The notes below the pieces were generated by a model. It was given only the letters and a program-made list of their open reading frames with translations, did no database searches and was not told the DNA's origin. A program made the position numbers and the translations under genes. This document shows, one piece after another, positions 6,690-59,083 of a stretch of DNA of 64,000 nucleotides. Source of the stretch: Candidatus Dojkabacteria bacterium (lineage in GTDB: Bacteria; Patescibacteriota; Dojkabacteria; JAHIVN01); assembly GCA_016932045.1 (NCBI GenBank), contig JAFGDO010000010.1, positions 1,759 to 65,758 of the forward strand, read 5' to 3'. Within the stretch, counting starts at the first letter, position 1. Each line of letters begins with the position of its first letter.

Positions 6690-7277
6690 ATGATCACTAT
6701 CGGCATCCAAGGCGGCAAAGGTTCATACAATGAGGAAGCCTGCAATCATTTCTGCAAAGTAAATGGTATTAAAGATTATGAAATTAAATACCTCTTCACT
6801 ACAGAAAAGGTTCTTGAAAACTTACATTTAGGAAGAATTGATTATGCACAGTTTGCTATAGAGGATCCTTCGGGAGGGATTGTAAATGAATCAATTGACG
6901 CTTTAACAAAATATACATGCAAAATTATTGATAAATTTAAGTATCCCATGAACCACTGCTTGCTTATTCATAAGGACGTTTCAATGGATGATGTGAAAAC
7001 AGTAATGACACACCCGCATATTTATAAACAATGTATAAATACACTTAAAGAAAAATACCCTCAATTGGAAGTAAAGATTGGAAAAGGTGACTTAATAGAC
7101 CAATCAAAAGTTGCGGAGAAAATCTCTGAGGGTGATATAGATAAAACAACTGCTGTCATAGGCTCTAAGCTTCTCGCAGAAATATACAGCAATTTAAAGG
7201 TCATCGAAGAAGGAATACAAGACTCAAAGGATAACTATACAACTTTTATGTTCTGCAAGAGAAGATATATCATCTAG
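6690..7277 (+). CDS. Prephenate dehydratase (PDT) domain protein without an ACT domain.
   Basis: IGIQGGKGSYNEEA (cf. PheA IAFLGPKGSYS), AIEDPSGGIV, THPHIYKQC (cf. SHPQALxQC) and NYTTF (cf. NFTRF). It is a paralog of the gene at 58454..59083. Confidence 0.75.
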   Translation: MITIGIQGGKGSYNEEACNHFCKVNGIKDYEIKYLFTTEKVLENLHLGRIDYAQFAIEDPSGGIVNESIDALTKYTCKIIDKFKYPMNHCLLIHKDVSMDDVKTVMTHPHIYKQCINTLKEKYPQLEVKIGKGDLIDQSKVAEKISEGDIDKTTAVIGSKLLAEIYSNLKVIEEGIQDSKDNYTTFMFCKRRYII

Positions 7278-14848: not shown

Positions 14849-17173
14849 ATGACCAGAAGACAATATTATAGGTCACGCGGCCGAAAAAGATTCTTTAGTA
14901 GATATCATAATAATCCACGGATTACAAGCATAAGAAAAAAAACAGTAAATCCATTACTTAGGAAAGCAAAAATGATAGGGGGAATTCTCGTAAATATTAT
15001 ACTTTTTTCCTTAATCTTTGTCTTACTATGGTGTCTTGCAATTATCGGCAAATACTCAAAGGATATCCCCAATCCAAATGAACCTTTTGAAAGGAAAGAA
15101 GATTTAACTAGTCACATATATGACAGAAATGGAAACGAACTATACAAAATACATGGGGATCAAAACAGAGAACTTGTTGAAGTTGAAGAAGTTCCTATAA
15201 GCGTATTGTGGGCCTTCCTGGCTTCTGAAGACATAGATTTCTATTCACATAATGGCATAGATTTTGGAGGTACTTTTATGGCACTGCTACATGATTGCTG
15301 CAATATTGGACAGCCAAGGGGTGGATCAACAATTACACAACAAATGCTCAAGAATACTGTACTATCGAATGAACGCACCTACGAGCGAAAAGCGAAAGAA
15401 ATCATCTTAAGCCTCAGAGTCGAACAAAAGTACAAAAAGAATGAAATTTTAAAACTGTATTTAAATGAAATAGGTTTCGGAGGAAACACATATGGTATCA
15501 AAACTGCTGCAAATGTATATTTCGACAAAGATGTAAAGGAGTTAACTCTTGGTGAAGCCGCTCTTCTTGCCGGTCTTCCACAAGCCCCGGGGAGATACTC
15601 TCCGCTATTTGCAGCAGATACTCAAGAAGCACAAAAGCTTGCTAAAGAAAGGCAGATTTATGTTTTGGATCAAATGCAGGAAAAAAAAGAGTTGATAAAC
15701 CAATATATTCAAGAATATAACACTTGGACTACCGATAAAGTCGAAATAACTGACGATATTATTCAAACCGCAAGAGAAGAGGAGATCACCTTTGCAGATG
15801 GGAAAATAGATATAAAAGCTCCTCATTTTGTTTTTTTTGTACAAGAAGAATTACAGATCGGCACTTATAATAGGGGGAAGTCCTTTACGCTTTCAGAAAT
15901 CGAACGAGGAGGGCTGAAGATAACAACCTCCCTCGATCTTGAACTCCAAGAAATTGCAGAAAGACACATAAAAGATGGCATACCCAAATGGGTGATTCCG
16001 CACGGTGGGTATAATGCCGCGCTTGTCACTTTGGACCCAGACACTGGGCAAATACTTGCTATGGTGGGATCTGGGGACTATTTTGGACAAAATTTCCCCG
16101 AGGGTTGCACTCCTGGTTTAGATTGCAAGTTTGAACCCAATGTAAACGTTGCCATTTCCTTGCGTCAGCCCGGATCGTCTATAAAACCTATGGTTTATTT
16201 TACAGGCTTTGAAACAGGACAGCTATATCCTGCTTATCCATTTGTTGATATGCCAATAAAGTTTTCAGACAACTATGAGCCAAGAAACAACAGCGGAACA
16301 TTCCTATATGGACCAATAAACTTAAGGCAGGCACTTCGGGAATCTTTAAATATTCCAGCCGTTGAAGCAACAGAAATTATTGGTGTTGATAATTTCGTTA
16401 AAAGTTTACAAAGACTTGGATATACAACCTATGACAGTTCTGCCTATTTTGGACCGGCAATAGGAGTAGGAGCAGGTGATGTTAAACTCATTGAGCATGT
16501 AAATGCCTTTGCTGTTTTTGCAGCAAATGGTATACATAATAAGCCGTCACCAATTCTCAGAGTCGAGGATTCAGAAGGAAATCTCCTTTACGATTACTAC
16601 CTAGACGAAAAGGAGAAGGGGATTAAAGTTGCAGATGAAAGGGCGTGCTATCTCATTAATGATGTAGCTAAATTTTACCACTATCGCCCTTCAAAGCCTG
16701 GATATGAATTTGCAGGAAAGACAGGGACATCCGATAATAACACCAATACTTACTATATAGGATGGTCGCCGGAAGTAGTCACGGGTATCTGGGTAGGAAA
16801 TAACGACAACTCAAGAATGTATAGATCCGCCTACGGATATACAACAGCGAGATACATTTGGATGGCTTACAACGAAGAAATACTTGAAAGGTTTCCTGCA
16901 GCAAAATTCCAAAGACCTCCTGGCATAGTGACTGCATCTGTATGCCAAGACAGCGGTCTCCTAGCTACGGGAAACTGCAGCGCAATAAGCGATCTCTTCA
17001 TTGCTGACAAACTCCCATCAGTTGACACTTCAACTTCGGCACAAAAGTCGTGTTCTTATGAAGTAAATAGGGATGATCCAAGCATAAAAAAATGGGTTTG
17101 TTCAAATAAATATAGCCGCTACATCAAGGCACCTAAGCCTGAATGGCAGGTGTATTGGGATAAGGTATTTTGA
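14849..17173 (+). CDS. Class A penicillin-binding protein (PBP1A-type; GT51 transglycosylase plus transpeptidase), copy 1.
   Basis: GT51 motifs (GGSTITQQMLKN, RKAKEIILSLRVEQ) and transpeptidase motifs SxxK (PGSSIKP) and KTG (KTGTSDN). A basic N-terminal tail precedes a TM anchor. Confidence 0.9.
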   Translation: MTRRQYYRSRGRKRFFSRYHNNPRITSIRKKTVNPLLRKAKMIGGILVNIILFSLIFVLLWCLAIIGKYSKDIPNPNEPFERKEDLTSHIYDRNGNELYKIHGDQNRELVEVEEVPISVLWAFLASEDIDFYSHNGIDFGGTFMALLHDCCNIGQPRGGSTITQQMLKNTVLSNERTYERKAKEIILSLRVEQKYKKNEILKLYLNEIGFGGNTYGIKTAANVYFDKDVKELTLGEAALLAGLPQAPGRYSPLFAADTQEAQKLAKERQIYVLDQMQEKKELINQYIQEYNTWTTDKVEITDDIIQTAREEEITFADGKIDIKAPHFVFFVQEELQIGTYNRGKSFTLSEIERGGLKITTSLDLELQEIAERHIKDGIPKWVIPHGGYNAALVTLDPDTGQILAMVGSGDYFGQNFPEGCTPGLDCKFEPNVNVAISLRQPGSSIKPMVYFTGFETGQLYPAYPFVDMPIKFSDNYEPRNNSGTFLYGPINLRQALRESLNIPAVEATEIIGVDNFVKSLQRLGYTTYDSSAYFGPAIGVGAGDVKLIEHVNAFAVFAANGIHNKPSPILRVEDSEGNLLYDYYLDEKEKGIKVADERACYLINDVAKFYHYRPSKPGYEFAGKTGTSDNNTNTYYIGWSPEVVTGIWVGNNDNSRMYRSAYGYTTARYIWMAYNEEILERFPAAKFQRPPGIVTASVCQDSGLLATGNCSAISDLFIADKLPSVDTSTSAQKSCSYEVNRDDPSIKKWVCSNKYSRYIKAPKPEWQVYWDKVF

Positions 17174-26083: not shown

Positions 26084-26936
26084 ATTTTTCATTCTTACAT
26101 AAATTCTCGTAAAAATATACTTCGCAACGTTCTTTTTTCACAAGATGCTATCATTACTACAAGACAAGCTGTGAAACGCCGGTTCCACAGAATTATCCAC
26201 AAGTAATCTCCATCCGTGATCATTCCCAGACACAAACAACATTAAAACTGTGCATTTCTAGAACACAAGAAGGCTAGTATCCGCACATACCAGATCTTTC
26301 AACTTTATTCATCATTATATTATACCCACTACTCGTACCATCTCCTACGATATTACCAACGATATTAAGCTATCTACTATAAGTTGCACAGACCACTAGC
26401 TTAATATATAATCACGGCAACCATGCAAGTGCGAAAAAATGATCAAAATAGTCAATTTATTTTAAGGACCTTTTTTAAGATTCTAACCGCCTCTGTTTAT
26501 ATAAATCTGTTTTTCGGTCTCACGACTCCACTCTTGCTAAATAAATAACTAAGAATCAATTTCCAATCCACGATCTACAATCTACAATTAAACAACATGT
26601 CAATATAGCAATATAGCAATATATCAATTATACAATTATTCAATGATTCGCTTGAGAATCAAGAATGAAGAATTAAAAATTAACAATGAAACAATTTGGC
26701 AATGCAACTATTCCATTATTATAAGCTCTAGGAAATATTTTTCTTCCTCCAGCATCTACTTCTATTTTCCTATTCTCCATCAAAGAGAAGACTACATTTA
26801 CAATTAAGGGTGTACATACTCTACCAGGCTTAATGCAACTTGCATTTTTTCTATATTTATGAGTAAATTAATATGCTTATATTAAATAGAGATATAACTT
26901 CATTTATTAAAATATAAAATTTTAATCCCACCAAAA

Positions 26937-29900
26937 ATGTTTAAAGCTCTATTCCAAGTAAGAAAATTTTCCTCAAAAGTGTTACCTTTAGCGGTAACTT
27001 TTTTTATATTAGGAAATTATTTTCTTCCTTTATTTAACATTGTCGATTTTAGTGTAAATGCAGCACCAAATGTACCAACCAATCTTGGGTGGAATACATC
27101 TGCAACTCATCCTGGTAATCCTGGATACAGACCAGTTGAAATTACCTGCGGAGGATATACGAATCAAAACTCAGTAGCTCATAACTGGAGTGATGAGTCT
27201 GCAAGTGGTGCAGTAAGTTACGAGAGACAATGGCGGGCACCTGGATCTGCAACTTGGAGTACAGATCCAACTTCATACGTTAATCCTTACACCTCATTTA
27301 GTTCTTTTGGTGGAGGTGGAGGCACAGAGGGAATATGGAATACAAGAGTACGAGGATATGATGCTACCGGAGATCCAAGTGCTTGGAGCAATGAATGCCA
27401 AATCACATATGATGTAACCGCCCCAGTTGTACAAATAACCAGCCCAGGTGACGGAAATGTACTTAACGGCTTTGTAGACATACGAGGAAGTGTCACTGAC
27501 ACTAATCCTGATCATTATTATCTTGTTGTAAGAGAATTAGATAACACAGTAATTGATGGTCCTGGCACTGTTTACAGGTATGACTCTTTCACAGATGAAT
27601 TGCTTTTTACATGGGACACTACTTCAGTTACAGACGGGGATTATATAATCCATCTGGCCGCTCGAGATGCTGCTGGGAATAGAGATGATGCGGCCGGATC
27701 ACTTCATAGGATAACAGTAACAGTAGATAACACAGCACCGCCAACTCCTTCTCTTGTTTGGCCAACAGATGGTGCAGTTATTCATCCATCTATAGCTATT
27801 CTTGATTGGACTGATGAAACCGATCCGCATGGACCTGTTACTTACAACTATCAAAGCTCTTGGAGCGGTGGTTCTTTTGGTCCTGTTTCTACTGGCACAA
27901 ATTCTTTTATAAATGCTACTGGCAGTGCTGATAATACTTATCTATGGTAAGTTCAGGCCTGTGATAGTTTAAACAATTGCAGTGCCTGGTCAGGTCCTTG
28001 GGAAGTCACTATTGACGGCACTCCACCTTACTCAAATTTCCTAACTCCAACTGATAATTCCTACCATAACTCTCCCATTAATATTTCCGGATTAACAGCC
28101 GACGATGGAAGTGGAGTAGATTATGTTGATATATCCTGGACTACTTATAATGGAGCATCTTGTGACGACTTGAGCTGGGCTTACCTTACAACATTTGATA
28201 ACACGGATAATGATACACCTTTTAACTGGCCGGAGTCCCCTTACGCTTGGACTCCAGCATCAGAGGGAAGCTACTGTCTTATGGCTGAAGGTACTGATAA
28301 TGCCGGTAATCTGGAAACAACTGCATATGCAACCAATGTTGTTTATGATACGACAGCTCCATTGGTGCAAATTACAAACCCAAGCGACGGAGATCTGGTA
28401 AATGGAACTGTAAACATTCAAGGATCAGTAACCGATGATAATCTTTGGAGATACTGGTTTGTTGTACAAAATTCTGGAGGTACAACTGTAGCTGGACCAG
28501 GGACTGTCTATCATGACGGACCGATTGTAAATGTTAATTTGGGATGGGATACAACTGCTGTTCCTGATGGAGACTATACCATAAAACTTGAAGCACGTGA
28601 TAAAGCAGACAATAAAGATCCAATCGACTCTGTCCACTGGATAACAGTAACAGTAGATAATACAGCACCGCCAACCCCTTCTCTTGTTTGGCCGTCAGAT
28701 GGTGCCGTTATTCATCCATCCATAGCCATTCTTGATTGGACCGATGAAACTGATCCACATGGACCTGTTACATACAACTATCAAAGCTCCTGGAGCGGTG
28801 GCTCTTATGGCCCAGTTTCAACAGGAACGAATTCTTTCATTAACGCTACAGGTAGCGCTGATAATACTTACTTCTGGCAAGTTCAAGCTTGTGATAGTTT
28901 GAATAATTGTAGCGCTTGGTCGAGTCCTTGGGAAGTTACTATTGACAGTACACCTCCTTACTCTACATTCTTCGAACCAACAGATAATTCCTATCACAAT
29001 TCACCGATCGCAATTAGTGGACAGACAGCAGATGATGGAAGCGGTGTTGATTACGTAGATATATCATGGACCACCTATAACGGAGCATCTTGTGATGATT
29101 TAGGTTGGACATACCTAACAACATTTAACAATACTGATAATGACACGCCATTTAATTGGCCTGAATCCCCTTATGCTTGGACTCCAGCATCAGAAGGTAG
29201 CTATTGTCTGATGGCTGAAGGCACTGATAATGCGGGTAACCTTGAAACGACAGCTTACGCTACAAACGTTGTTTACGACACAACAGCTCCATATGTTGAG
29301 ATCACAGATCCTCTAGATGGTCAATATGTTAATGGTACTGTTGATATCTGGGGTTTTATCATAGATGATAATCTGAGTCACTATAATATTGCTATTTATC
29401 CAGGAGGTGTTGATACATGGAACTTTTCCGAAAGACTTGAACAACAGACAGTATACACATCAGAATTTGGAAATTCACAAATCTACTCGTGGGATACAAC
29501 AATCTATCCTGATGGGGACTATCAGATCCGTTTAGCTGCACGTGATTTAGCAGGTAATAGGGACCCGATGACTCCATCTTATCCCAATGAGATAGGAGAT
29601 TCAGTTCACATAATCACAGTTACAGTTGACAACACAGCTCCAACGGCTATGTTTGCAAATCAGTCTGTAGATGAGACAGTTACTTCATGGCCTGGGTATT
29701 CATTACTTGTGAGTTCTGAGCCAATAGTAAATATCAACTGTTCAACACTAGAGACACTGCCAAGAAATGCAGAAACCTTACCAAATCCAGTTGCCTTTAA
29801 CTGTACATTCGAGGACCTTGCGGGAAATCTTGGAACTAGTTCATATACAGTTACTGTAAATGATATTGTACCTTCAGTAGTTGTTAATCCTTCTAGTATA

Positions 29901-30719
29901 ACAGTTACTACAGCAGATCCTGCAGTCACACTTACAGCAACAGGAAGTGGTGGTAATGCACCATTAACTTATAGCTGGTCAGGAGCCTGCGCTGGTTCAA
30001 GTAGTACCACTACCGCTCCAAGTACAGTAGGAACACACGTCTGTACTGTAACAGTCACTGACGCTGATGGTGATACTGCTTCTGCAACAGCCACAGTTAC
30101 TGTAAATCCAGCTTCAACACCACCTGCCGGAGGACAACCAGGAACAGGTGCAGGAGGAGGAACTGTTGGCACACAGGTGACAGTTCTTGGTGCAGAAACC
30201 GGAGGTGAAGGAGAGGTAAACGGTGATGCAGAGTCAGACGAACAGGAAGAAGACGGTGAAGTCCTTGGAGAAGAAGAGTGTGAAAATAAATCTAAAGTAA
30301 GAGGCTACATCTACTATGATAACAATGACAATGATCAGAAGGATAAAGGAGAAGAAGGACTTGAAAGTATAGAGGTTAAAATCTATCTAGAAAAGGACGG
30401 AGAAAAAGATGTTGTAACAACAGAGAGAACAGATGAGAATGGATATTGGGAAGCAGAGGTTTGTCCGGGAGAATATAAAGCAGAGATAAATAAAGACGAT
30501 CTTCCCGAAAATGTCGCTCTCTCAAGCGATGAAGTTCTAGGACTTAGTGTAAAAGAAGATGAAGAAATGAATGATATAAACTTCACTGTAAAGAAAACCC
30601 AAGGAATTGACTTCAGCTGGTGGTGGTGTCTAGTACCTCTTGCTATAGTCGCTCTTGTTTATCTTGCCAGTAAATTCTTTAAGCCGAAAGAAGAACAGGA
30701 TGTTAAGGTCGGGATGTAG
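26937..30719 (+). pseudogene. Very large (~1260 aa) secreted or membrane-anchored repeat protein, interrupted by a single in-frame TAA at 27948-27950. The ORF track reports it as 26937..27950 plus 28170..30719.
   Basis: The two ORFs share a frame and the 27951-28169 interval has no stops. Homology to the downstream repeat runs straight across the stop, which is CAA (Gln) in the paralogous repeat at 28878. Other features are an N-terminal signal peptide, three tandem ~310-aa repeats, Ig-like domains, an SdrD-B/CnaB-like domain (RGYIYYDNNDND...TDENGYWEAEV) and a C-terminal TM anchor with a basic tail. Confidence 0.7.
27400..29640 (+). repeat. About 2.3 tandem copies of a ~930-nt intragenic repeat with roughly 85-90% nucleotide identity between copies.
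   Basis: For example, 27715-27945 against 28648-28878 are near-identical (ACAGTAACAGTAGATAACACAGCACCGCCAAC...). The units begin near 27420, 28350 and 29280. Confidence 0.6.
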
Positions 30720-30752
30720 CATGAGATATAGATAATAACAAAGTTTGAGAGA

Positions 30753-30778
30753 CAAGGGGCTTAAGCCCCTTGTTTTTT
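30753..30778 (+). terminator. Intrinsic terminator: CAAGGGGC-TTAA-GCCCCTTG hairpin followed by TTTTTT.
   Basis: A perfect palindrome followed by a T6 run, 34 nt after the stop of the large surface protein gene. The hairpin is a copy of the recurring palindromic element. Confidence 0.7.
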
Positions 30779-30883
30779 CTACCATTGATTTTGACTTCCA
30801 TTTATAAATATAATATTGCAAAGTAAAAAAACTTTTGCTAGAGTGTATGGAGTTATTAGTTTACATTATTTTTCCTACTGCCA

Positions 30884-31981
30884 ATGAAAAAAAGAGCCCT
30901 AGCAGTTGCAATTGTTTCAGGATTATTTCTTTTCTCTCCCTTATTTATACTTACAGTAAATGCAGCCGACATAAGGGTGAATGAAGAAAGTGTCGTTGTA
31001 GATGAATATGTTGATGATGATCTGTATGTAAATGCAGGTTCAATTGAGATAAATGAAGATGTAAATGGAGACCTCGTCGCTGGCGGTGGACAAATTGTCA
31101 TAAACGACGACATATACGGGCACGCAATGATAGGAGGAGGAACTATTGAAATCAATGGCGATATTCGCGGAAGTCTTTTTGTTGGCGGGGGACAGATCAC
31201 TGTAAATGGAAGAATCTATGAGGATGCAAATATAGGCGGAGGAATGGTTACCTTAAATGGCGACGTTGACGATGATGTACGAATCGGCGGAGGCACCGTA
31301 TATATTAGAAGTACCGAGATTGGAGGAGATCTATTTGTTGGAGCCGGTAATGGATCCGTCTCGAATGATACTGAGGTAGGAGGAGATACACAGGTAGAAT
31401 TTGGTGATGCCCAAGGGTCAAAAGCATTTGATTTTAAAGACGTGTTTAGATTTCAACAAAGAAGTTTTGTAAGTATTCTCCTGGATTTTCTTAGAAAACT
31501 TGGGGTACTTGTTGGTTGGCTAATAGTTGGATATCTACTATTCAAATTTGCACCTGTAAAGAGCAAAACGATTGCCAATACCCTAACAGATAAGAATTCT
31601 TCTGTGATGAGTCTTGTAGTCGGAGTTGTATTTATGTTGTCACTAATAATTATAGTACCCGGTCTAATTCTTCTTACAGTGCTTGGCATTGGACAGCCTC
31701 TTTTGGGCCTATTCTTCTCACTTCTTGCAGTTGCACTTACAATTGGAGGACTATATAGTGCAACAGGATTAACAAGGATGATAATCCGCTTAAAGAAGCC
31801 GAAGTATGAAGGCCTGATGCTTCCTATGCTTATAGGAGTAACTGTCTATCAAATATTGGGTTGGATACCTTGGATATTCTGCTGTCTTGGACCGATCGTA
31901 AAGATTCTCATTACCACATGGGGAGTAGGGGGAATACTTGTTTCAAAATGGAATATGATAAAAGAATCAAAAGGTAAATAA
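30884..31981 (+). CDS. Membrane protein with an N-terminal secreted bactofilin/CcmA-like beta-helical repeat domain and a C-terminal polytopic domain.
   Basis: A signal peptide, then about six repeats of the form D.(N)GD(L/V)..GGG.(I/V).(I/V)NG.. as seen in bactofilin/DUF342 beta-helices, then four or more TM helices. Confidence 0.55.
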   Translation: MKKRALAVAIVSGLFLFSPLFILTVNAADIRVNEESVVVDEYVDDDLYVNAGSIEINEDVNGDLVAGGGQIVINDDIYGHAMIGGGTIEINGDIRGSLFVGGGQITVNGRIYEDANIGGGMVTLNGDVDDDVRIGGGTVYIRSTEIGGDLFVGAGNGSVSNDTEVGGDTQVEFGDAQGSKAFDFKDVFRFQQRSFVSILLDFLRKLGVLVGWLIVGYLLFKFAPVKSKTIANTLTDKNSSVMSLVVGVVFMLSLIIIVPGLILLTVLGIGQPLLGLFFSLLAVALTIGGLYSATGLTRMIIRLKKPKYEGLMLPMLIGVTVYQILGWIPWIFCCLGPIVKILITTWGVGGILVSKWNMIKESKGK

Positions 31982-32008
31982 TATTTTACTTATTAATTAA
32001 TTTAAAAA

Positions 32009-32362
32009 ATGAGAAAAGTTGGAAAGATAGCAACTGCAGCGGGCACTATGTTAGCAAGCCTTTTTATGGGAGCTACAAGTGTTTCGGCTCAATCAGATTC
32101 TGCAGGCGATGTTTTTGGAGCCGGCATGAGTGCATTTATGTGCATCTGCTATGCAGTAGCAATTATTGTAGGCTTAGGACTCCTTGTATTCACAGTCATG
32201 ATGATAGTTGACGTGACAAAAAGAGATGAATCAGTCCTGCCTAACAAAACTATGTGGATGGTGCTTATGATCGTCGGAACAGTTGTTGGTGGTTTTGGTT
32301 GGATAGTAGCAATTTACTACTACTTCGCAAGGAAGAGAAAGTTAGATGCAATGGGTAAGTAG
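32009..32362 (+). CDS. Small membrane protein, PLDc_N-like.
   Basis: A signal/anchor segment, two TM helices and a C-terminal YYYFARKRK motif. Confidence 0.45.
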   Translation: MRKVGKIATAAGTMLASLFMGATSVSAQSDSAGDVFGAGMSAFMCICYAVAIIVGLGLLVFTVMMIVDVTKRDESVLPNKTMWMVLMIVGTVVGGFGWIVAIYYYFARKRKLDAMGK

Positions 32363-32382
32363 AACGATTAGATTAGAATAGA

Positions 32383-32416
32383 TGAAAAGAGCTTTACAGA
32401 TGTAAGGCTCTTTTTT
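32383..32416 (+). terminator. Intrinsic terminator: AGAGCTTTA...TAAGGCTCT hairpin followed by TTTTTT.
   Basis: A 9-bp stem including one G-U pair, then a T6 run, 20 nt after the stop at 32362. Confidence 0.55.
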
Positions 32417-32433
32417 ATATATTATCACCTAAG

Positions 32434-32455
32434 ATAAGGGGCTTAAGCCCCTTAT
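32434..32455. repeat. Palindromic element ATAAGGGGCTTAAGCCCCTTAT (copy).
   Basis: A perfect palindrome with the same GGGGCTTAAGCCCC core as the copies at 21611 and 30753. Confidence 0.55.
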
Positions 32456-32572
32456 TATATAGTCGAAGGTTGAAAGTTAGACTTTCAACCATTTCATACT
32501 AGTCCACTTGTCTAACAGCAACCAATAAATTATAATTCTAGAAATAGCTTATTTTTTAAGTGAACAATATAA

Positions 32573-33163
32573 ATGGCTGACACATATCTGATTCCTTCCG
32601 TCATAGAAAGAACTAGAGAGGGAGAAAGGGCATATGATATTTACTCACGTCTTTTGAAAGAGCGAATAATATTTTTGGGGACAGGAATAGACAACCAGGT
32701 TGCAAATGCAGTAGTTGCTCAGCTTCTTTTCCTCCAGAAAGAAGATAGTAAAAAAGATATCATGATGTATATAAATTCACCCGGAGGCATAATATATGCC
32801 GGTCTTGCAATAATCGATACTATGAATCATATAAGCTGCAATATCTCAACAGTTGCAGTTGGCGTTGTTGCTTCAATGTCAACATTAATACTCTCAAGCG
32901 GAACTAAAGGTAAACGCTACTCACTTCCAAATAGTATGATACATATTCACCAGCCCCACGCTCCAAGTGGAGTAAAAGGGCAGGCAAGCGATATAGAAAT
33001 TGAGGCCAAAGAAATTCTTAGATTAAAAGAGCTTTCCGCAAGAATTCTTGCAAAAACTACAGGTCAAAAAAAAGGCAAAATCATACAGGATTTCGACAGG
33101 GACTTTAATATGACAGCAAAAGAAGCAAAGGATTACGGAATAATAGATAGTATAATAACGTAG
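32573..33163 (+). CDS. clpP: ATP-dependent Clp protease proteolytic subunit.
   Basis: ERIIFLG...INSPGG, the catalytic-Ser context VASMST, and the His in IHQP. Confidence 0.9.
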
Positions 33164-33275
33164 ATAGCTCGACGGTTGGATGGCCGGATGGCTAGGTAGC
33201 TAACCATCTAAAAAGCTGCAAGCTGATAGCTTGAAGCTTCATGACAATTATTAATTCTTCATTCTTAATTTTTAA

Positions 33276-33761
33276 TTGAATATAGTGCAAAACAAAGCTT
33301 GGATAAAAGCAGGTCTTCTTGCAGCAGGAGTTTCAATATTACTACAGCTACTTGGAACCATTTCGTGTCTAAAATGTGCATTGTGGCCTATATATTGCAC
33401 TTCGTGGTTCCTCGTTCCTTTAACCTGTGGATTTCTTGCTTCAACATGGGCTACCTTGGCTCGTGATGATCTCAGAGAAGCAGCGATTCAAGGAGCTCTT
33501 GCCGGTCTTGTTCTTGGAGTCTTAAGCGGAATTGTATCAATCAGTATAACGATAATCTCTTCAGTGCTCAACCTTAGCACGGTGACCTTCTTTAATGCTA
33601 TTGAAGAGAACAGGAATCTAACGGATTACCTGCCAATAAACACGTTAAACTTCGGAACAAGAATAGTATTTTCGACAATTGGATTTGTATTCGGGACCTT
33701 TTCAAATGTGATTCTTTCAGTTATTGGTGGTATAATCAAAGTCGCACTTTCAAAAAAATAG
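33276..33761 (+). CDS. Polytopic membrane protein, hypothetical.
   Basis: Four predicted TM helices and no recognisable motif. Confidence 0.5.
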   Translation: MNIVQNKAWIKAGLLAAGVSILLQLLGTISCLKCALWPIYCTSWFLVPLTCGFLASTWATLARDDLREAAIQGALAGLVLGVLSGIVSISITIISSVLNLSTVTFFNAIEENRNLTDYLPINTLNFGTRIVFSTIGFVFGTFSNVILSVIGGIIKVALSKK

Positions 33762-33816
33762 CAAGCTGTTAGACTGTAAATCAGCCTGTAATCGAGGCTA
33801 GTTCTGAAAAGAACAT

Positions 33817-33890
33817 GGGCGGTTAGCTCAGTTGGTTAGAGCATTCGCTTGACGTGCGAAAGGTCACAAGTTCGAATCTTGTACCGCCCA
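33817..33890 (+). tRNA. tRNA-Val (anticodon GAC). The 3' CCA is not encoded.
   Basis: A cloverleaf with acceptor GGGCGGT/ACCGCCC, D-arm AGCTCAGTTGGTTAGAGC, anticodon stem TTCGC/GCGAA with loop TTGACGT, and T-arm with GTTCGAATC. It is flanked by the inverted repeat GAAAAGAACA / TGTTCTTTTC. Confidence 0.85.
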
Positions 33891-37145: not shown

Positions 37146-37502
37146 ATGCAGAACTACCACAATATAAATACCTGGAAGAAATCACATAAGCTGACAATGG
37201 AACTATACAAAGTAACTTCAAGATTCCCCAAGGAAGAGGTTTATGGAATAACAAATCAGCTTAAAAGATGTTGTTCATCTATTCCTGCAAATATTGCAGA
37301 AGGATGTGGGAGAAGAACGAATAAGGACTTATTGAGATTCTGTTACATTGCACTTGGATCTGCAAATGAAACTGAATACTTTTTACTTCTTTCAAAGGAT
37401 CTTAGTTACTTGGGTACAAAAGAATATAAAGCTTTAAATGAAAAGATAAACGAAATCAGACGCATGCTGATTAATTTTATTAAGAAACTTGATCCGAAGT
37501 AG
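37146..37502 (+). CDS. Four-helix-bundle protein (PF05635 / 23S rRNA IVS protein family; DGR Avd homolog).
   Basis: WKKSHKLTMELYKVTSRFPKEEVYGITNQLKRCCSSIPANIAEGCGRRTNKDLLRFCYIALGSANETEYFLLLSKDL shows the full family signature. The ORF-track start at 37038 overlaps the ATPase gene, so the internal ATG at 37146 is preferred. Confidence 0.75.
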   Translation: MQNYHNINTWKKSHKLTMELYKVTSRFPKEEVYGITNQLKRCCSSIPANIAEGCGRRTNKDLLRFCYIALGSANETEYFLLLSKDLSYLGTKEYKALNEKINEIRRMLINFIKKLDPK

Positions 37503-44989: not shown

Positions 44990-47900
44990 TTATGGTACAA
45001 ATCTTCCACCATTATCCCTTACCCTAATAAAGTAACCTCCAACCTCAAATATCTTGAAATCATTTCCATAAGGTATATCATTTTCCTTGATGAAGTTTTC
45101 ATATCTTCCATTATCCCATCTAGTTATTGTATCAGCCTTAATCCCGTCACCGTTTATCGCATCTAGTAAACTATCTGATGTGTATTCTGTCTCTGGTGAA
45201 ACAATACTAACAAGATTCCAGCCTCTCTCAAATTCTATTGGCAAACTTTCTTCAATTTCAGCTCCCTTAAACATTACCTTGCCAGCATTATAGACTTTAA
45301 TAAAATACCCTTGCCCAGGAATAATACTAAAATTATTTGAAAAACTTATTCCATTTCTTTGAGAATAAACATACCACCTCCCTCCAAAATAAGTTGCTAC
45401 ATGAGTAGCATATACTCCTTGATCATTGATATTTTCAAGTAAAGACTTTGCATCTCCAACATTACTCCCTTCCTCTATCTTAGTATAATTGGGAATGGAT
45501 ATTATGTTCCAACCCACATCTAAATTTATAAAGACTCCATTTGATATTTTTACCTTTTCAAGACTTGATATCTTTACTTCAGTCTCCATAGGATCCATCT
45601 CCCCATTATTATTCCAATCCCAATATATTATTGAATTTCCACTCAATTTAACTATATCGCTAGTTATCTCCATCTTTCTTTCCTCCGCAACCTCCGCCTC
45701 GACTTTTCTGATAAGGCCTTTATTTGTATCATCAACATATTTATACCCATCACTACTAGTGCAACCTAAAGCATCTTTAAGCATTTCCATATTTGTATCT
45801 CCTGGATCGGGATTATGATATTCTCCTCCTGGTCCCGTTAGCGTTCTCTCGCTGTGTCCGATGACGGAACATTTATCATGGATAAAACCTGAGACTTCCC
45901 ATGTTTCTATCAGATCAACCATAGAATCAATCTGTTCTTGCGAAAAATCACTACCTGACTGTCCAACATTTTCTATAGCAATACCACGAATATTTCCTTC
46001 TTGTTCACCCGCATGAAGAGCAACCTGTTCAATATTAGTAACCTGAGTTATAACACCATTTCGATCAATGACGACATGAGCATAAGGAATAAGATTCCCA
46101 TCTGGATCAATAACATTATCTCTCCAATATGTAGCAATATTTAGTCCAGTGACATCGTCTCCGGTTTGATGAATCCACACTGCATCCTTATTTGATGTAT
46201 TATTTGAAGAATTATAATTATATGTACTTAATAAATCCTGATCATAATTATTTGACACATGTTCTCCTACCAATGAGGTTCTATCTCCACTAGAAATATC
46301 ATAATATGTGATTTCTAAATCTATAGGTGCTAAACCCACGTTTGTTATCGGAGGACAGTCATCTCCTGATGCAATAGGAAAACAAGGATCATCTGGATCT
46401 GCGTCGTTTATATCATTTATGCCATCTCCATCGGAATCAAGTCTAGGATTAACACAAGAACCTGATAAACACTCTAATCCATACCTACAATTATTAAAAT
46501 AAACACCCGAAGCCTGCCTCCATTCGCAGGGTTCACCATGACTTTTATCGCATACACCAAATAATGCTATACAGTCAGGACGACAATCGGGCTGATTATG
46601 AACTGGTACACAATCATTATCGTATTGAACAATCTCTACCAAACTATGGTACGAACCAGCCAAGAAAGCTTCTTTACTACAATTAAACCAATGCTGTCCA
46701 TTTTGAACAATATTATTGCTATCACTTAAAGATCCATTACAAGCACTTCTATACTCATGAGGATACGTATCAACTATATGGACTGTACCATTCAAACATA
46801 TATAAATATCTCCACTCCCTAACTCTATAAAACTTCCCTCAGGATGCCCTTCAATACCTAACTCATTGCAGGTTATATCACGTTTCGTATCCAAAATAGA
46901 AACTTCCCAAAACGCTTCGTAATTATTATTTATTTGTCTAATGCTGCATAACGCTAAATAGGTTACATCGTTTTCTTCAAACTTCCTGCTACCATGAACA
47001 CTTATACCTTCTGGAACATATCTTTCAAGCAAATCGTGGTACGAACTAACAGACTCCCAGTGATCCCTACCTACATCGCATGACATATTTTCGTTTACAC
47101 GATCTTCAACATCACTTTGTTCCTGACCTACTGCGCACTTATCATTTCTACCTGTAGGCATTTTTGTACATCCATATGAACCACATTCCTGATTTAAAGT
47201 ACAATCATCTGATTTCGTACAATAATACAAATTATTACCATAACAATATAAACCTACCCCTCCCCAATCATCACTACTTATTGTAACAACTCCGTCACCT
47301 TTTGTAGTTGGTCCTCCGACATCCGCAATATTATTACAAATACCATATTGACCTGGCCCAAAATCGCTAATTTCCCTACACCCAGCATCTCCACAATCAG
47401 TATAAATTTTACAATTTGACTTTGTCAGACATGCATATACATCATTATCGTAGCAGTACAATCCCTCCCCCTTCCATTTATCGTCAGGAATTTTTTGATC
47501 AGATGTAACAGATGGTGTTCCACCACTAAAACATCTATCATTTTTTCCTACCGGCATCTTCTCACACCCAGATTCATTACATTCTAGGTTCTTTGAGCAA
47601 GTAGTTTTATTTGAGCAATAATATAAGTCATTGTCATAACAGTATAATCCGGCTCCTCCCCAATCTTCATCACTAATGTATTGTGTTGTGCCTGGAGTAG
47701 CTGGAGTAGAAGGAGGAACCGTTGTTGTAGTACCAACGCATTTTGAATTCCAACAAGGCTGTGGTTTACAGATTGAATCACAGCTTTTAGGATTTCCCCA
47801 GTCCCAATCTCCTAAATCAGGGTTGCAATAATAGGCTATACAAGTATCATTAGTACAATGCCAACCACTTAATCCACCGCAATCAGCCGCATAAATCTGA

Positions 47901-48766
47901 TTTATTAAACTACTATTACTTTTTTCTAATTCGATAGGACTATATGGTTCTGTATATATATCACCCAAAGGTTGTAATTTTTCCGAAGGTATGTTTCTAA
48001 CTTGCGTCCATTCGTTTGAAGTAATAATTTCAAGATCAACAATGAAATCGCTATTTATATCAAAAAACTCTTCAAGATTTTCTTGTCTAAGTAAACCTAT
48101 ATCTATACTCCAGCCGGACTCGGTATTTATCAAAGTACTAGCAACCTGAGATTGTTTTTCATGAATGTTGCTATCATCTGTTTCTATTGACTTAAGACTC
48201 AGCAAAACAATCCCTTCATCCAAGGATTCTCTCTTAGAATTAAATACCCTGCCATATACTGGATATGGACTTTTTAATTCATCTGCGATATCAATTGTTT
48301 CAAGTGGTGGATACTCATAATCTACACTCCTCATACCTGTACTTACCTTATAGTAATATTTACTATTAGGATTTAACTCTCTTAGTATTACATAATGAAC
48401 ATAATATTCACGCCACTGATTTATTTTATATACTCCATATTCAACCTCTTCAATATCTCTTTCATCATAAGCTCTATCTTTGCCAATGTATCTAAAAATA
48501 GGGAACCATTTATCCTCTTTTGCATAAATAACACTACCACAAGTTGGACTATCGCTAATCCATGTAACTGTCGCACTCGTACCTGTAATATTTGTAACTC
48601 TAACATCTCTTATCTCTGATGTCCTTTCGCTTAAAAAATTTACACCAATCACAATTATTGTTAAAAGGAAAATAACAATCGTAGAAACTACCAACAGCAG
48701 TCCCATCTTAGAGGATCTAAAAAAAACTAAAAACCTATTCAAATAATTATCTTTAGAATTTGCCAT
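44990..48766 (-). CDS. Giant (1258 aa) membrane-anchored extracellular protein combining an N-terminal FN3-like (purple acid phosphatase N-like) domain, three Cys-rich ~55-aa repeats, a Ca-binding-like D-rich motif, an Amidase_2 (PGRP-type N-acetylmuramoyl-L-alanine amidase) domain and a C-terminal repeat region.
   Basis: An N-terminal TM helix. The FN3-like stretch is VRVTNITGTSATVTWIS...LNPNSKYYYKV. The Cys-rich repeats are DWGGAGLYCYDNDLYYC...C..EC...GC (x3), and the D-rich motif is DSDGDGINDINDADPDDP. Amidase_2 motifs are YAHVVIDRNGVITQ...ALHAGE...NIRGIAIENVG...VIGHSE. Confidence 0.8.
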   Translation of the reverse strand: MANSKDNYLNRFLVFFRSSKMGLLLVVSTIVIFLLTIIVIGVNFLSERTSEIRDVRVTNITGTSATVTWISDSPTCGSVIYAKEDKWFPIFRYIGKDRAYDERDIEEVEYGVYKINQWREYYVHYVILRELNPNSKYYYKVSTGMRSVDYEYPPLETIDIADELKSPYPVYGRVFNSKRESLDEGIVLLSLKSIETDDSNIHEKQSQVASTLINTESGWSIDIGLLRQENLEEFFDINSDFIVDLEIITSNEWTQVRNIPSEKLQPLGDIYTEPYSPIELEKSNSSLINQIYAADCGGLSGWHCTNDTCIAYYCNPDLGDWDWGNPKSCDSICKPQPCWNSKCVGTTTTVPPSTPATPGTTQYISDEDWGGAGLYCYDNDLYYCSNKTTCSKNLECNESGCEKMPVGKNDRCFSGGTPSVTSDQKIPDDKWKGEGLYCYDNDVYACLTKSNCKIYTDCGDAGCREISDFGPGQYGICNNIADVGGPTTKGDGVVTISSDDWGGVGLYCYGNNLYYCTKSDDCTLNQECGSYGCTKMPTGRNDKCAVGQEQSDVEDRVNENMSCDVGRDHWESVSSYHDLLERYVPEGISVHGSRKFEENDVTYLALCSIRQINNNYEAFWEVSILDTKRDITCNELGIEGHPEGSFIELGSGDIYICLNGTVHIVDTYPHEYRSACNGSLSDSNNIVQNGQHWFNCSKEAFLAGSYHSLVEIVQYDNDCVPVHNQPDCRPDCIALFGVCDKSHGEPCEWRQASGVYFNNCRYGLECLSGSCVNPRLDSDGDGINDINDADPDDPCFPIASGDDCPPITNVGLAPIDLEITYYDISSGDRTSLVGEHVSNNYDQDLLSTYNYNSSNNTSNKDAVWIHQTGDDVTGLNIATYWRDNVIDPDGNLIPYAHVVIDRNGVITQVTNIEQVALHAGEQEGNIRGIAIENVGQSGSDFSQEQIDSMVDLIETWEVSGFIHDKCSVIGHSERTLTGPGGEYHNPDPGDTNMEMLKDALGCTSSDGYKYVDDTNKGLIRKVEAEVAEERKMEITSDIVKLSGNSIIYWDWNNNGEMDPMETEVKISSLEKVKISNGVFINLDVGWNIISIPNYTKIEEGSNVGDAKSLLENINDQGVYATHVATYFGGRWYVYSQRNGISFSNNFSIIPGQGYFIKVYNAGKVMFKGAEIEESLPIEFERGWNLVSIVSPETEYTSDSLLDAINGDGIKADTITRWDNGRYENFIKENDIPYGNDFKIFEVGGYFIRVRDNGGRFVP

Positions 48767-48848
48767 AGAGGATAAATAAAAGATTATGTATCTTAAATAA
48801 TAAAAATATTATGATATAGAAACTACATTGTGTCAAAGGTAGGAATTA

Positions 48849-50114
48849 TTACCAATCTTCCACATCTTTTACCACTTTTTCCTCCCACCATTTCTTACAA
48901 TTACTGTTTATAAAAACTATAATCCACCCAGCTCCAGCAGTAAATACTATAAGACCGAACATTGTTCTAAAAAGCCAGTAATCTTCAAATCCAGTACTTG
49001 GCAAATCAGTTCCTGTATTTTGAGTTGTTTGTTGTTCCGCTTCAGGTGCAGGATCCTGCGAAGTAGTAGCAGTGACTTCAGATTCAATTGTAAAATTACT
49101 GCCAGCAGTTGAAGCAAAAATCTCGTCATTATAGCCTGTTTTCTCAGCCCGAATATTTAAAATTTTATCTTCAAGTTCATCTAATGCCACAGCGCTTACA
49201 TACCCCGTATAACTATCCGGACCGTATAATTTCACCTGCAATCCATTTTCTGACGAGTAGGGAAAATAAGAAACAAGATCTTGTTCCCTCGCTATACCAA
49301 TTACAAGTTCTACTCCGCCTGTAGCGTTATATATTCCACTAACTATCGACGACTCCTCTCCATGTATGTCAATCTGTTTTGCAAGTACTAAATAATCTAC
49401 ATCAGAAAAACCTGCAACCTTATTTGAAGTTATAGAAACCGAGGCAGGAGTTGAGGGTGAAGAGGTAAGTTGTGCACTTGCATAGCTATATGGCTTCCCA
49501 TTATCATTAAATTCCTCATCATTTGAGACAATTGTGAAATAATACGTTAAGCCTTCTATATCTAGATCTTCATCTGAATTAATAATGGTCACATGATGGG
49601 TAAAGCGTTTTTCTAGATTATTAGTGTTTTCTTCTCTGTCGTCATACTCAGTACGCACAAGTTCTGTTTCATCTGTACCAAATTGAATATAACCTGTTTG
49701 TGCTGTATCTGTAACCCAAGCAATACTCCATATCCTAAAATCCTCATTTGTGATTTGAACTTTTTGAGGAGTATTTTCTTTGATTGTTTCAGTTGCTTGC
49801 TCCTCTGGTTTTTCCTCTACACTAGGCATCTCTTCTTCTACTTCACCCTCAGGTTCCGCAGCATACACATCATTAGCTCCAAGTCTTACTACAGGAAGAG
49901 ATGGAACACCTTGACTGCTTAAGCATACTAACCCCTCGGGACAATTTGACACCGAGCCATCGGACTCCCATAAACTTTCTAATTCTTCATCGGTTCGAGT
50001 AGAAGGACCCGTAGTTTTATCAGTACCGCTTTCTCTTGTAAAGAAAAAGAAAATACCTATACCAATAGATATTGCAATAAACACCAAAATTATTAGCACT
50101 ATTTTATCCTTCAT
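48849..50114 (-). CDS. Surface protein with an N-terminal signal/anchor, an FN3-like domain and a C-terminal LPSTG sortase-type sorting signal.
   Basis: The C-terminus reads DLPSTGFEDYWLFRTMFGLIVFTAGAGWIIVFINSNCKKWWEEK, which is LPxTG followed by a hydrophobic segment and a basic tail. The N-terminal module is paralogous to the two flanking genes. Confidence 0.6.
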   Translation of the reverse strand: MKDKIVLIILVFIAISIGIGIFFFFTRESGTDKTTGPSTRTDEELESLWESDGSVSNCPEGLVCLSSQGVPSLPVVRLGANDVYAAEPEGEVEEEMPSVEEKPEEQATETIKENTPQKVQITNEDFRIWSIAWVTDTAQTGYIQFGTDETELVRTEYDDREENTNNLEKRFTHHVTIINSDEDLDIEGLTYYFTIVSNDEEFNDNGKPYSYASAQLTSSPSTPASVSITSNKVAGFSDVDYLVLAKQIDIHGEESSIVSGIYNATGGVELVIGIAREQDLVSYFPYSSENGLQVKLYGPDSYTGYVSAVALDELEDKILNIRAEKTGYNDEIFASTAGSNFTIESEVTATTSQDPAPEAEQQTTQNTGTDLPSTGFEDYWLFRTMFGLIVFTAGAGWIIVFINSNCKKWWEEKVVKDVEDW

Positions 50115-50123
50115 TACTTAATT

Positions 50124-50858
50124 CTATTCATTTATTTGTATGATTTGAGTCGTAACTCTTCCTTCCCCCCTGTCACCTCCCTCCGCAACAATATATAGGG
50201 TAGCACTATTATATTCAGTAAAGTAATCGGAAAGGTCGGCTAACCTTAAATTCGAAAGATCAAATGTATACCGCCTATCTAGAGTCAAAGCCGATAATTC
50301 ATTTGATACCAAACCATCTTTTTCAGCATATAAGTAAACTATCAGATCCTCATTTGAACCTGATGAGTCTTCAACTTCTCCCTTAACTGGTTGTGGCATT
50401 TGCACAGTCTCCAATGTAGAACCAGTTCTAAATTGGTAAAGCTGATTTTGAGACATCTTGTATTCTTTCCCGCCAACGGCAATGAGATAATAATAGCTTG
50501 AATCAGGGTTTAATCCGACAAGATCAACATAGTGAAGGGTATACTGTCCATTTGCCTCTCCTATATCTCTAATATCAAATGCAATCTGACTAACTTCTGG
50601 TTGATTCCCAAACTTAACAAACCCGATTGTTTCAACCGTAGGAGTGACCCATGAAATCGTAGCCGATGTATCTGTAATATTTGTAACTACAACATTCTGG
50701 GGGACCTCTGTTGGAAGAGCTTTTGTGCGCATCTCGGTTATATACATAACACCGCTGACAGAAAGCGGGATCAAGATTACCGCGATAAAAAGGATAATGA
50801 TCAATGTCCTAAATTTTCGTTGCTGTTTTTTTTGTGGAAAGGACTCATCTTCTGACAT
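50124..50858 (-). CDS. Membrane-anchored protein with an FN3-like (PAP-N-like) extracellular domain. It is the third paralog of the cluster.
   Basis: An N-terminal TM helix, then VVVTNITDTSATISWVT...LNPDSSYYYLI, matching the same domain in the two genes at higher coordinates on this strand. It lies 9 nt from the preceding gene, which suggests an operon. Confidence 0.6.
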   Translation of the reverse strand: MSEDESFPQKKQQRKFRTLIIILFIAVILIPLSVSGVMYITEMRTKALPTEVPQNVVVTNITDTSATISWVTPTVETIGFVKFGNQPEVSQIAFDIRDIGEANGQYTLHYVDLVGLNPDSSYYYLIAVGGKEYKMSQNQLYQFRTGSTLETVQMPQPVKGEVEDSSGSNEDLIVYLYAEKDGLVSNELSALTLDRRYTFDLSNLRLADLSDYFTEYNSATLYIVAEGGDRGEGRVTTQIIQINE

Positions 50859-58453: not shown

Positions 58454-59083
58454 TCATTTTTCACCCATAGGCTGATCCTCCTTTGGCGGAAATTGTTCAT
58501 ATCCATTTCCCTTCACCAATAAAAAAGTTGTATAATTCTTCTTATTATCCTGTAAATTACCTGCAATAACATCCAAGTCATAAATATCCGAAAGGATTTT
58601 CGAACCCATGACTGCTATATTTCTTGGCAGTTTCTTTGCACTCATCTTTTTTGCCACCATTGCATGATCAATTAAATCACCCTTACCGCTCACCTTTTTC
58701 AAATTTGGATACCTTTTAGCCAAAGTAGATTTGCACTGAGCTAAAACTTGAGGATGCGTCATGATTGTATCTATTTCAGCTAATTCTACACCCTTTCTTT
58801 TCATAAGGTAGTGAGAAATAATAATTGAAATCTCTCCGGCTACTTTGAACTTATACCTACCCATTGCATTTATAGATTCGTGCACTATTCCTCCGACTGA
58901 GTTGTGAATAGCAAACAGTCCATAATCTATTTTCCTTTCTTTCAGATGCCGAAGCACTCTTTCGGAAGTATAAAGGTACTTTACTTCATAATCTCTAATC
59001 TTGTGCCTTTCAATATAAGTCATAATGGCTTGCTCATTGAAGCTGCCTCTGCCACCTTGTATTCCGTATAGTACTTTACTCAT
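58454..59083 (-). CDS. Prephenate dehydratase (PDT) domain protein, paralog of 6690..7277.
   Basis: YGIQGGRGSFNEQA, AIHNSVGGIV, THPQVLAQC and NYTTF motifs, with no ACT domain. Confidence 0.75.
   Translation of the reverse strand: MSKVLYGIQGGRGSFNEQAIMTYIERHKIRDYEVKYLYTSERVLRHLKERKIDYGLFAIHNSVGGIVHESINAMGRYKFKVAGEISIIISHYLMKRKGVELAEIDTIMTHPQVLAQCKSTLAKRYPNLKKVSGKGDLIDHAMVAKKMSAKKLPRNIAVMGSKILSDIYDLDVIAGNLQDNKKNYTTFLLVKGNGYEQFPPKEDQPMGEK

Follow-up and report, generated by a model that had tools for sequence, protein, structure and literature searches.

An in-frame TAA in a 1260-codon surface-protein gene of a Candidatus Dojkabacteria bacterium, probably a segregating nonsense polymorphism

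The interrupted gene and its product

The 64,000-nucleotide stretch of the Candidatus Dojkabacteria bacterium contig JAFGDO010000010.1 analysed here (the window; 36.6% GC) contains a gene for a large repeat-containing surface protein that is broken by one in-frame TAA. Two open reading frames (ORFs), 26937..27950 (337 aa, ATG start) and 28170..30719 (849 aa, TTG start), lie in the same frame. Translation of 26700-30800 gives a single internal stop with recognisable protein on both sides, and no further stops or frameshifts occur in that frame beyond the TAA at 27948-27950 (codon 338); the read-through ORF, 26937-30719, has 1260 codons. This confirms the original prediction that the two ORFs share a frame with no other stop between them. 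Around the stop the read-through sequence is ...GSADNTYLW(stop)VQACDSLNNCSAWSGPWEVTIDGTPP..., and the conserved motif Y-x-W-[Q]-V-x-A-x-D runs from one side to the other. The motif spans the stop itself, and the two ORFs are one gene and not chance neighbours. The stop context is CTATGG[T/C]AAGTTC, a base substitution within unique sequence.

In the public annotation, the upstream ORF is NCBI MBN2015667.1 (JW766_02440), a 337-aa "hypothetical protein", and the downstream ORF is identical to MBN2015668.1, a "PKD domain-containing protein" of Candidatus Dojkabacteria bacterium. Both are encoded on one 69,736-bp contig. Neither is marked as a pseudogene or a split gene. The 849-aa coding sequence (CDS) that begins at the internal TTG is best regarded as an effect of the stop on gene calling, rather than a gene in its own right.

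In the layout proposed for the read-through protein, a signal peptide and an FN3-like domain come first, followed by two [Ig, FN3, Ig] units and a further Ig-like domain; a weak PKD-like match and then an acidic linker precede the SdrD-B/CnaB-like domain, and the C-terminus carries a membrane anchor (Table 1). Pfam matches to the Ig-like families Big_3_3, Big_13, Big_3_2 and Y_Y_Y and to a single, marginally scoring copy of SdrD_B (PF17210), together with a hydropathy profile that has one N-terminal and one C-terminal hydrophobic segment, agree with the domains and the transmembrane (TM) anchor that had been predicted. A motif search for the sorting signal [LIVN]PX[TSA]G found none anywhere in the 1260-aa protein, and a sequence search of the full-length protein against the PDB returned no match.

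The module that holds the stop was compared with known folds by means of a profile of 30 homologous modules. The profile matched the FN3 arrays of titin (E = 1e-22), the FN3 domains of RPTP-delta (E = 5.5e-8) and of Bacillus chitinase A1 (1k85; E = 6.8e-8), and also the insulin-receptor FN3. Members of the alignment match Pfam fn3, Ig_Rha78A_N and Pur_ac_phosph_N. By this profile evidence the interrupted module is a fibronectin type III domain. In the Y-x-W-x-V-x-A stretch, which from the alignment we take to be the F strand with the "tyrosine corner" of FN3, the stop stands in place of the residue that separates W from V. It lies within a motif of the FN3 fold rather than between domains.

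Table 1. Features of the interrupted gene, with their positions in the window and the basis of each assignment
Feature	Position	Strand	Basis or remark
Single gene for a 1260-aa surface protein, broken by one TAA	26937..30719	+	Equals Logan protein P0122 except residue 338
N-terminal signal peptide/membrane segment (MFKALFQVRKFSSKVLPLAVTFFILGNYFLPLF...SVNA/AP), predicted	26937..27065	+	Hydropathy maximum at residues 15-36; cleavage site by eye
Conserved duplicated block, copy 1 (FN3 + Ig-like B)	27699..28301	+	92-94% aa identity to copy 2
FN3-type domain of unit 1 (predicted), with the stop in the Y-x-W-Q-V-x-A F-strand motif	27723..28031	+	30-module profile against solved FN3
In-frame TAA, codon 338; base T here, C (CAA, Gln) in Logan SRR13394437	27948..27950	+	Sole mismatch in 59,611 bases
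Deposited CDS MBN2015668.1, 849 aa, internal TTG start	28170..30719	+	Homologous sequence extends upstream of the TTG
Conserved duplicated block, copy 2	28629..29231	+	Offset of 930 nt from copy 1
FN3-type domain of unit 2 (predicted), intact paralog	28653..28961	+	Alignment and profile
Paralogous codon 648, CAA (Gln), repeat unit 2	28878..28880	+	Unit alignment
PKD-like domain, weak	29895..30104	+	PF22352, E = 7e-4 to 1.7e-3, 18.7-20 bits, below the cut-off of 27
SdrD B-like (CnaB-type) domain, preceded by an acidic Glu/Asp/Gly-rich linker	30306..30521	+	PF17210, 29.9-30.4 bits, cut-off 29.7
C-terminal TM helix and basic tail (WWWCLVPLAIVALVYLASKFFKP), no LPXTG before it	30618..30686	+	Hydropathy, motif search

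Repeat units, constraint and the ancestral residue

The protein is similar to itself at an offset of 310 aa (930 nt), and the two repeat units that this defines are about 85% identical in DNA. Alignment of unit 1 with unit 2 bears out the earlier claim that protein homology continues across the TAA. Opposite the stop region unit 2 reads ...NTYFWQVQACDSLNNCSAWSSPWEVTIDSTPP..., and its codon 648, CAA, aligns with the TAA of unit 1. The original prediction was right that the equivalent codon in the second repeat is CAA but had placed it at 28876-28878, which reads GGC; the position was 2 nt off.

To describe constraint on the two sides of the stop, nonsynonymous (pN) and synonymous (pS) differences between unit 1 and unit 2 were obtained as Nei-Gojobori counts. 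Over the 83 conserved codons upstream of the stop, pN is 0.027 and pS 0.48, with 94% aa identity; over the 117 codons downstream, pN is 0.056 and pS 0.77 (at saturation), with 92% aa identity. These values show strong purifying selection between the units on both sides of the stop. Low pN relative to pS downstream of the stop indicates that this region was long kept coding and that the stop is extremely recent on the time-scale of the duplication. Among residue pairs that are identical between the units, the fraction that also share the codon is 0.64 upstream and 0.51 downstream, against a random expectation of 0.38-0.42. With the fraction this low, the duplication is old, and selection has kept both copies coding, the part 3' of the stop included. 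The idea that the repeats actively avoid identity at the DNA level was considered and rejected, as the same-codon fraction lies at or above that expectation.

Glutamine is also the residue that homologs would predict at the interrupted position. Among the homologs retrieved there are 102 occurrences of the motif Y-x-W-x-[VA]-x-[ASV]-x-D. The position after W is filled by Q in 43 of these modules, by R in 25 and by H in 24, and the closest subtype (WQVQACD...NCS-WS) has Q there almost without exception. CAA (Gln338) is therefore the ancestral state, since Q is the commonest residue in homologs and is present both in the paralogous unit and in the second assembly described below. The best non-self homolog has 45-47% identity over about a third of the query, and the homolog search returned no ortholog above 47% identity.

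Constraint within the tandem duplication (27357-28301 versus 28293-29231) is a mosaic. The FN3 + Ig-B block keeps 92-94% aa identity despite near-saturated synonymous sites (omega about 0.04-0.07), while the Ig module that precedes it is only 46% identical (omega about 0.29). In each unit, the FN3 + Ig-B block looks to be the part that is critical for function. A separate observation concerns cysteines in the FN3 subtype. Two of them co-occur (A-C-D...N-C-S) at 27954-27992 and at 28884-28922 (motif QACDSLNNCSAWS) and in homologs P0002-P0118, and other FN3 copies have residues other than Cys at both places (A-V/I-D...N-K/T/V-S). That the paired cysteines are present or absent together suggests that extracellular FN3 domains of Patescibacteria have a disulfide bridging the F-G hairpin.

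Two alleles in two assemblies

Clustering at 90% identity places both deposited ORFs with a third member, P0122, a 1260-aa protein from the Logan assembly of SRR13394437. It equals the read-through translation of the window except that residue 338 is Gln (CAA). Its contig (L001, 7,020 bp) was compared with window positions 26855-33874 and has one mismatch, at 27948, where the window has T and Logan has C. As a baseline for the difference between the assemblies, contigs L002-L006 were fetched via flanking genes. Together L001-L006, all from SRR13394437, cover 59,611 of the 64,000 window bases ungapped, and position 27948 is still the sole mismatch. With one mismatch in 59,611 bases, the two assemblies sample one population. 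An allele with intact CAA is present in a genomic background that is otherwise the same, and the predicted single C-to-T change between an intact protein of about 1260 aa and a truncated one is precisely the difference between the two assemblies. Look-ups of this gene and of its flanking genes in the index placed the organism in SRR13394437 and in no other sample. Exact-pattern scans with N at the variable base gave 0 matches in GTDB representative genomes and 0 in JGI metagenome contigs.

The Logan assembly breaks in an 850-bp AT-rich stretch upstream of the gene, 26084-26936, with contig ends at 26855 and 26859. This stretch has no plus-strand ORF of at least 60 aa; a 61-aa minus-strand gene is called at 26673-26858. 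Rfam reports nothing in 26084-26936.

We favour a C/T nonsense polymorphism that segregates in the sampled population, to which we assign a probability of roughly 0.6. The TAA would have arisen by one C-to-T transition at 27948 that has not gone to fixation. Both alleles would co-exist, and the assembler behind the metagenome-assembled genome (MAG) and the Logan assembler would each have kept a different branch of the bubble; alternatively, the two assemblers would have used different libraries. In de Bruijn-graph assembly each contig allele needs its own supporting k-mers in the reads, and therefore the simplest reading is that both C and T reads exist. We infer on these grounds that the T allele is backed by real reads, and its consequences for the protein are likewise predicted. 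The T allele would be a loss-of-function allele in which translation ends inside the FN3 domain. Its product would be a 337-aa secreted fragment that keeps the signal peptide and loses the C-terminal anchor. The 922 codons downstream have no signal peptide, so their product would not be delivered to the surface even if translation started at the internal TTG.

Several points weigh against a segregating polymorphism. Among indexed contigs, the T allele is present only in the NCBI MAG. Its support is drawn from the way assemblers behave. Bubble-popping toward the better-covered branch would normally make both assemblers agree; for them to differ, the alleles must be nearly equal in frequency, the input reads must not be the same, or one of the assemblies must be in error. 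Dojkabacteria MAGs from the Zodletone Spring project (PRJNA690107) have 36.9-37.2% GC, which fits the window, and derive from single-sample Illumina data of roughly 20-65x coverage, for which the assembler was MEGAHIT (k = 27-127); the link between that project and the contig or SRR13394437 is circumstantial, and a literature search for the run accession gave no paper.

It is possible, though in our judgement unlikely, that the T is instead an error of consensus, assembly or polishing in the MAG. The population would then carry only, or almost only, CAA, and the T would be an artefact, for example a miscall at low coverage, a k-mer path made up of errors or an edit after assembly. Such an origin accords with the T being unique to the MAG, with the C of an independent assembly that is otherwise identical over 59.6 kb, and with the fact that the sole discrepancy destroys a long, selectively maintained ORF, which is how errors often get noticed. 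However, short-read de Bruijn assemblers as a rule emit no base without k-mer support, and the site is unique at k > 11, and neither repeat copy could supply the T. If the MAG belongs to the Zodletone Dojkabacteria bins, its coverage of about 20-65x would also make a pure error path unlikely. The longest k-mer covering 27948 that recurs in the window is 11 nt for either allele, with no T there in either unit. The earlier suggestion of an error in a repeat region is accordingly disfavoured, as the units have no more than an 11-mer in common at the site and a T is in neither of them. Repeat-collapse misassembly as the source of the T was rejected as well, since the units are about 85% identical in DNA and a chimera would give C and not T. 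A fixed pseudogene in a distinct strain or sample, with the nonsense allele swept there and SRR13394437 representing the intact lineage, would also account for two assemblies with two alleles, and surface proteins are often under selection for loss of function. We find this improbable. Zero other differences in 59.6 kb make two separately evolving lineages unlikely, one run only in the index carries the organism, and the sequence downstream of the stop shows no decay, its pN/pS against the paralog staying low. Of the pseudogene, error and heterogeneity offered by the original prediction, heterogeneity and consensus error thus stand, and the fixed pseudogene is disfavoured by the intact CAA allele and by a sole difference in 59.6 kb.

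We give almost no weight to recoding, in which stop-codon reassignment, a suppressor tRNA or programmed readthrough would let the TAA be read as Gln or as another residue, even though the codon sits exactly at a conserved Gln position. Alternative codes in some Patescibacteria lineages reassign UGA, not UAA. The nearest known case, code 25 (UGA = Gly) of Gracilibacteria/Absconditabacteria, is alike in coming from a related phylum-level group and in having an in-frame stop at a conserved sense position; it differs from the present case, in which the stop is UAA, each of the three stop codons ends genes of the window, and a sense allele co-exists. Sixteen long ORFs end in TGA (8), TAA (5) or TAG (3). 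The CAA allele in the same population also makes decoding of the TAA unnecessary. The only tRNA in the window is tRNA-Val(GAC), beyond which Rfam finds nothing in the 64 kb. An in-frame TAA within a conserved gene occurs in this one case in 64 kb. Two other same-frame pairs are ordinary neighbouring genes, each with its own start: 34061-34417/34418-36358 encode a PadR regulator and a DUF4097 membrane protein, and 12667-10826/10825-9803 encode GlmS and a CofD-like protein.

Two further mechanisms were rejected. Mutagenesis of the type caused by diversity-generating retroelements (DGRs), raised by the Avd-like genes described below, is not adenine-specific here: the alleles are C/T, with C in the paralog. 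Differences between unit 1 and unit 2 are spread over synonymous sites, and no RVT family (reverse transcriptase) was found among the precomputed Pfam matches for genes on L001-L006. A phase-variable contingency gene was dismissed on the ground that the site has no homopolymer or short tandem tract.

Other genes of the window and related systems

Two small genes, 37197-37502 and 2268-2468, match 23S_rRNA_IVP/bAvd (PF05635, PF22296), a four-helix-bundle family that includes DGR accessory proteins; one of them lies between an ABC ATPase and an FtsX permease. A second giant gene, 44990-48766 (-), encodes 1258 aa with an Amidase_2 domain (peptidoglycan amidase) and an FN3-like Pur_ac_phosph_N domain. 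Its same-strand neighbours are 48849-50114 (-; 421 aa, no Pfam match) and 50124-50858 (-; a 244-aa Pur_ac_phosph_N protein), and the genes of 44990-50858 may form a cell-wall-hydrolase or surface cluster. The window also holds, within 64 kb, two class-A penicillin-binding protein (PBP) genes and two prephenate-dehydratase (PDT) domain paralogs, at 14849-17173 (+), 55047-58025 (-), 6690-7277 (+) and 58454-59083 (-). The class-A PBPs combine Transgly and Transpeptidase domains, one of them with a Big_7 domain. Paired PBP and PDT paralogs are notable for a genome of roughly 1 Mb.

We compared the interrupted protein with known families. Giant Ig-like/FN3 surface proteins of Patescibacteria (Dojkabacteria, Saccharimonadales, Microgenomates) share with it the domains Big_3_3, Big_13, Big_3_2, Y_Y_Y, FN3, PKD and SdrD_B, the N-terminal signal, the C-terminal TM helix and the WQVQACD...NCS-WS subtype of FN3. 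Its domain order and the internal 310-aa duplication are peculiar to it. It is a typical, though uncharacterised, example of the large FN3/Ig-repeat surface proteins that are common in Patescibacteria. Staphylococcal Sdr/MSCRAMM adhesins are alike in having one SdrD_B-type domain beside a membrane anchor, with an acidic low-complexity linker before it; the 1260-aa protein differs in having no LPXTG, no Ser-Asp dipeptide repeats and no A-domain. Because LPXTG and the Ser-Asp repeats are missing, it is not a member of the Sdr/MSCRAMM family, and the likeness is limited to one shared domain.

As a genomic phenomenon, the closest parallel is the collapse of segregating nonsense single-nucleotide variants in a MAG consensus. 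It is alike in that a single base differs between assemblies of one population, and in that one allele truncates a non-essential surface protein while downstream homology is intact and free of decay. It differs in that the case here rests on two assemblies and not on reads. Under either a polymorphism or a consensus error the phenomenon is ordinary, and no new mechanism or principle is involved. We think it quite improbable that selection keeps the nonsense allele at intermediate frequency, for example by negative frequency-dependence from phage or at the host-cell interface. If it were true, cells of an episymbiotic bacterium of the candidate phyla radiation (CPR) would switch a major surface adhesin between "armed" and "bald" states by point mutation, and the paralogous unit that lies 930 nt downstream might act as donor for repair through gene conversion.

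Taken together, MBN2015667.1 and MBN2015668.1 should be treated as parts of a single surface protein of 1260 aa that has Gln338. The comparison also indicates that independent Logan assemblies can settle the question "pseudogene or error?" for MAGs without a return to the reads. If a loss-of-function allele does segregate in this population, it would provide a small data point on the turnover of surface proteins in episymbionts.

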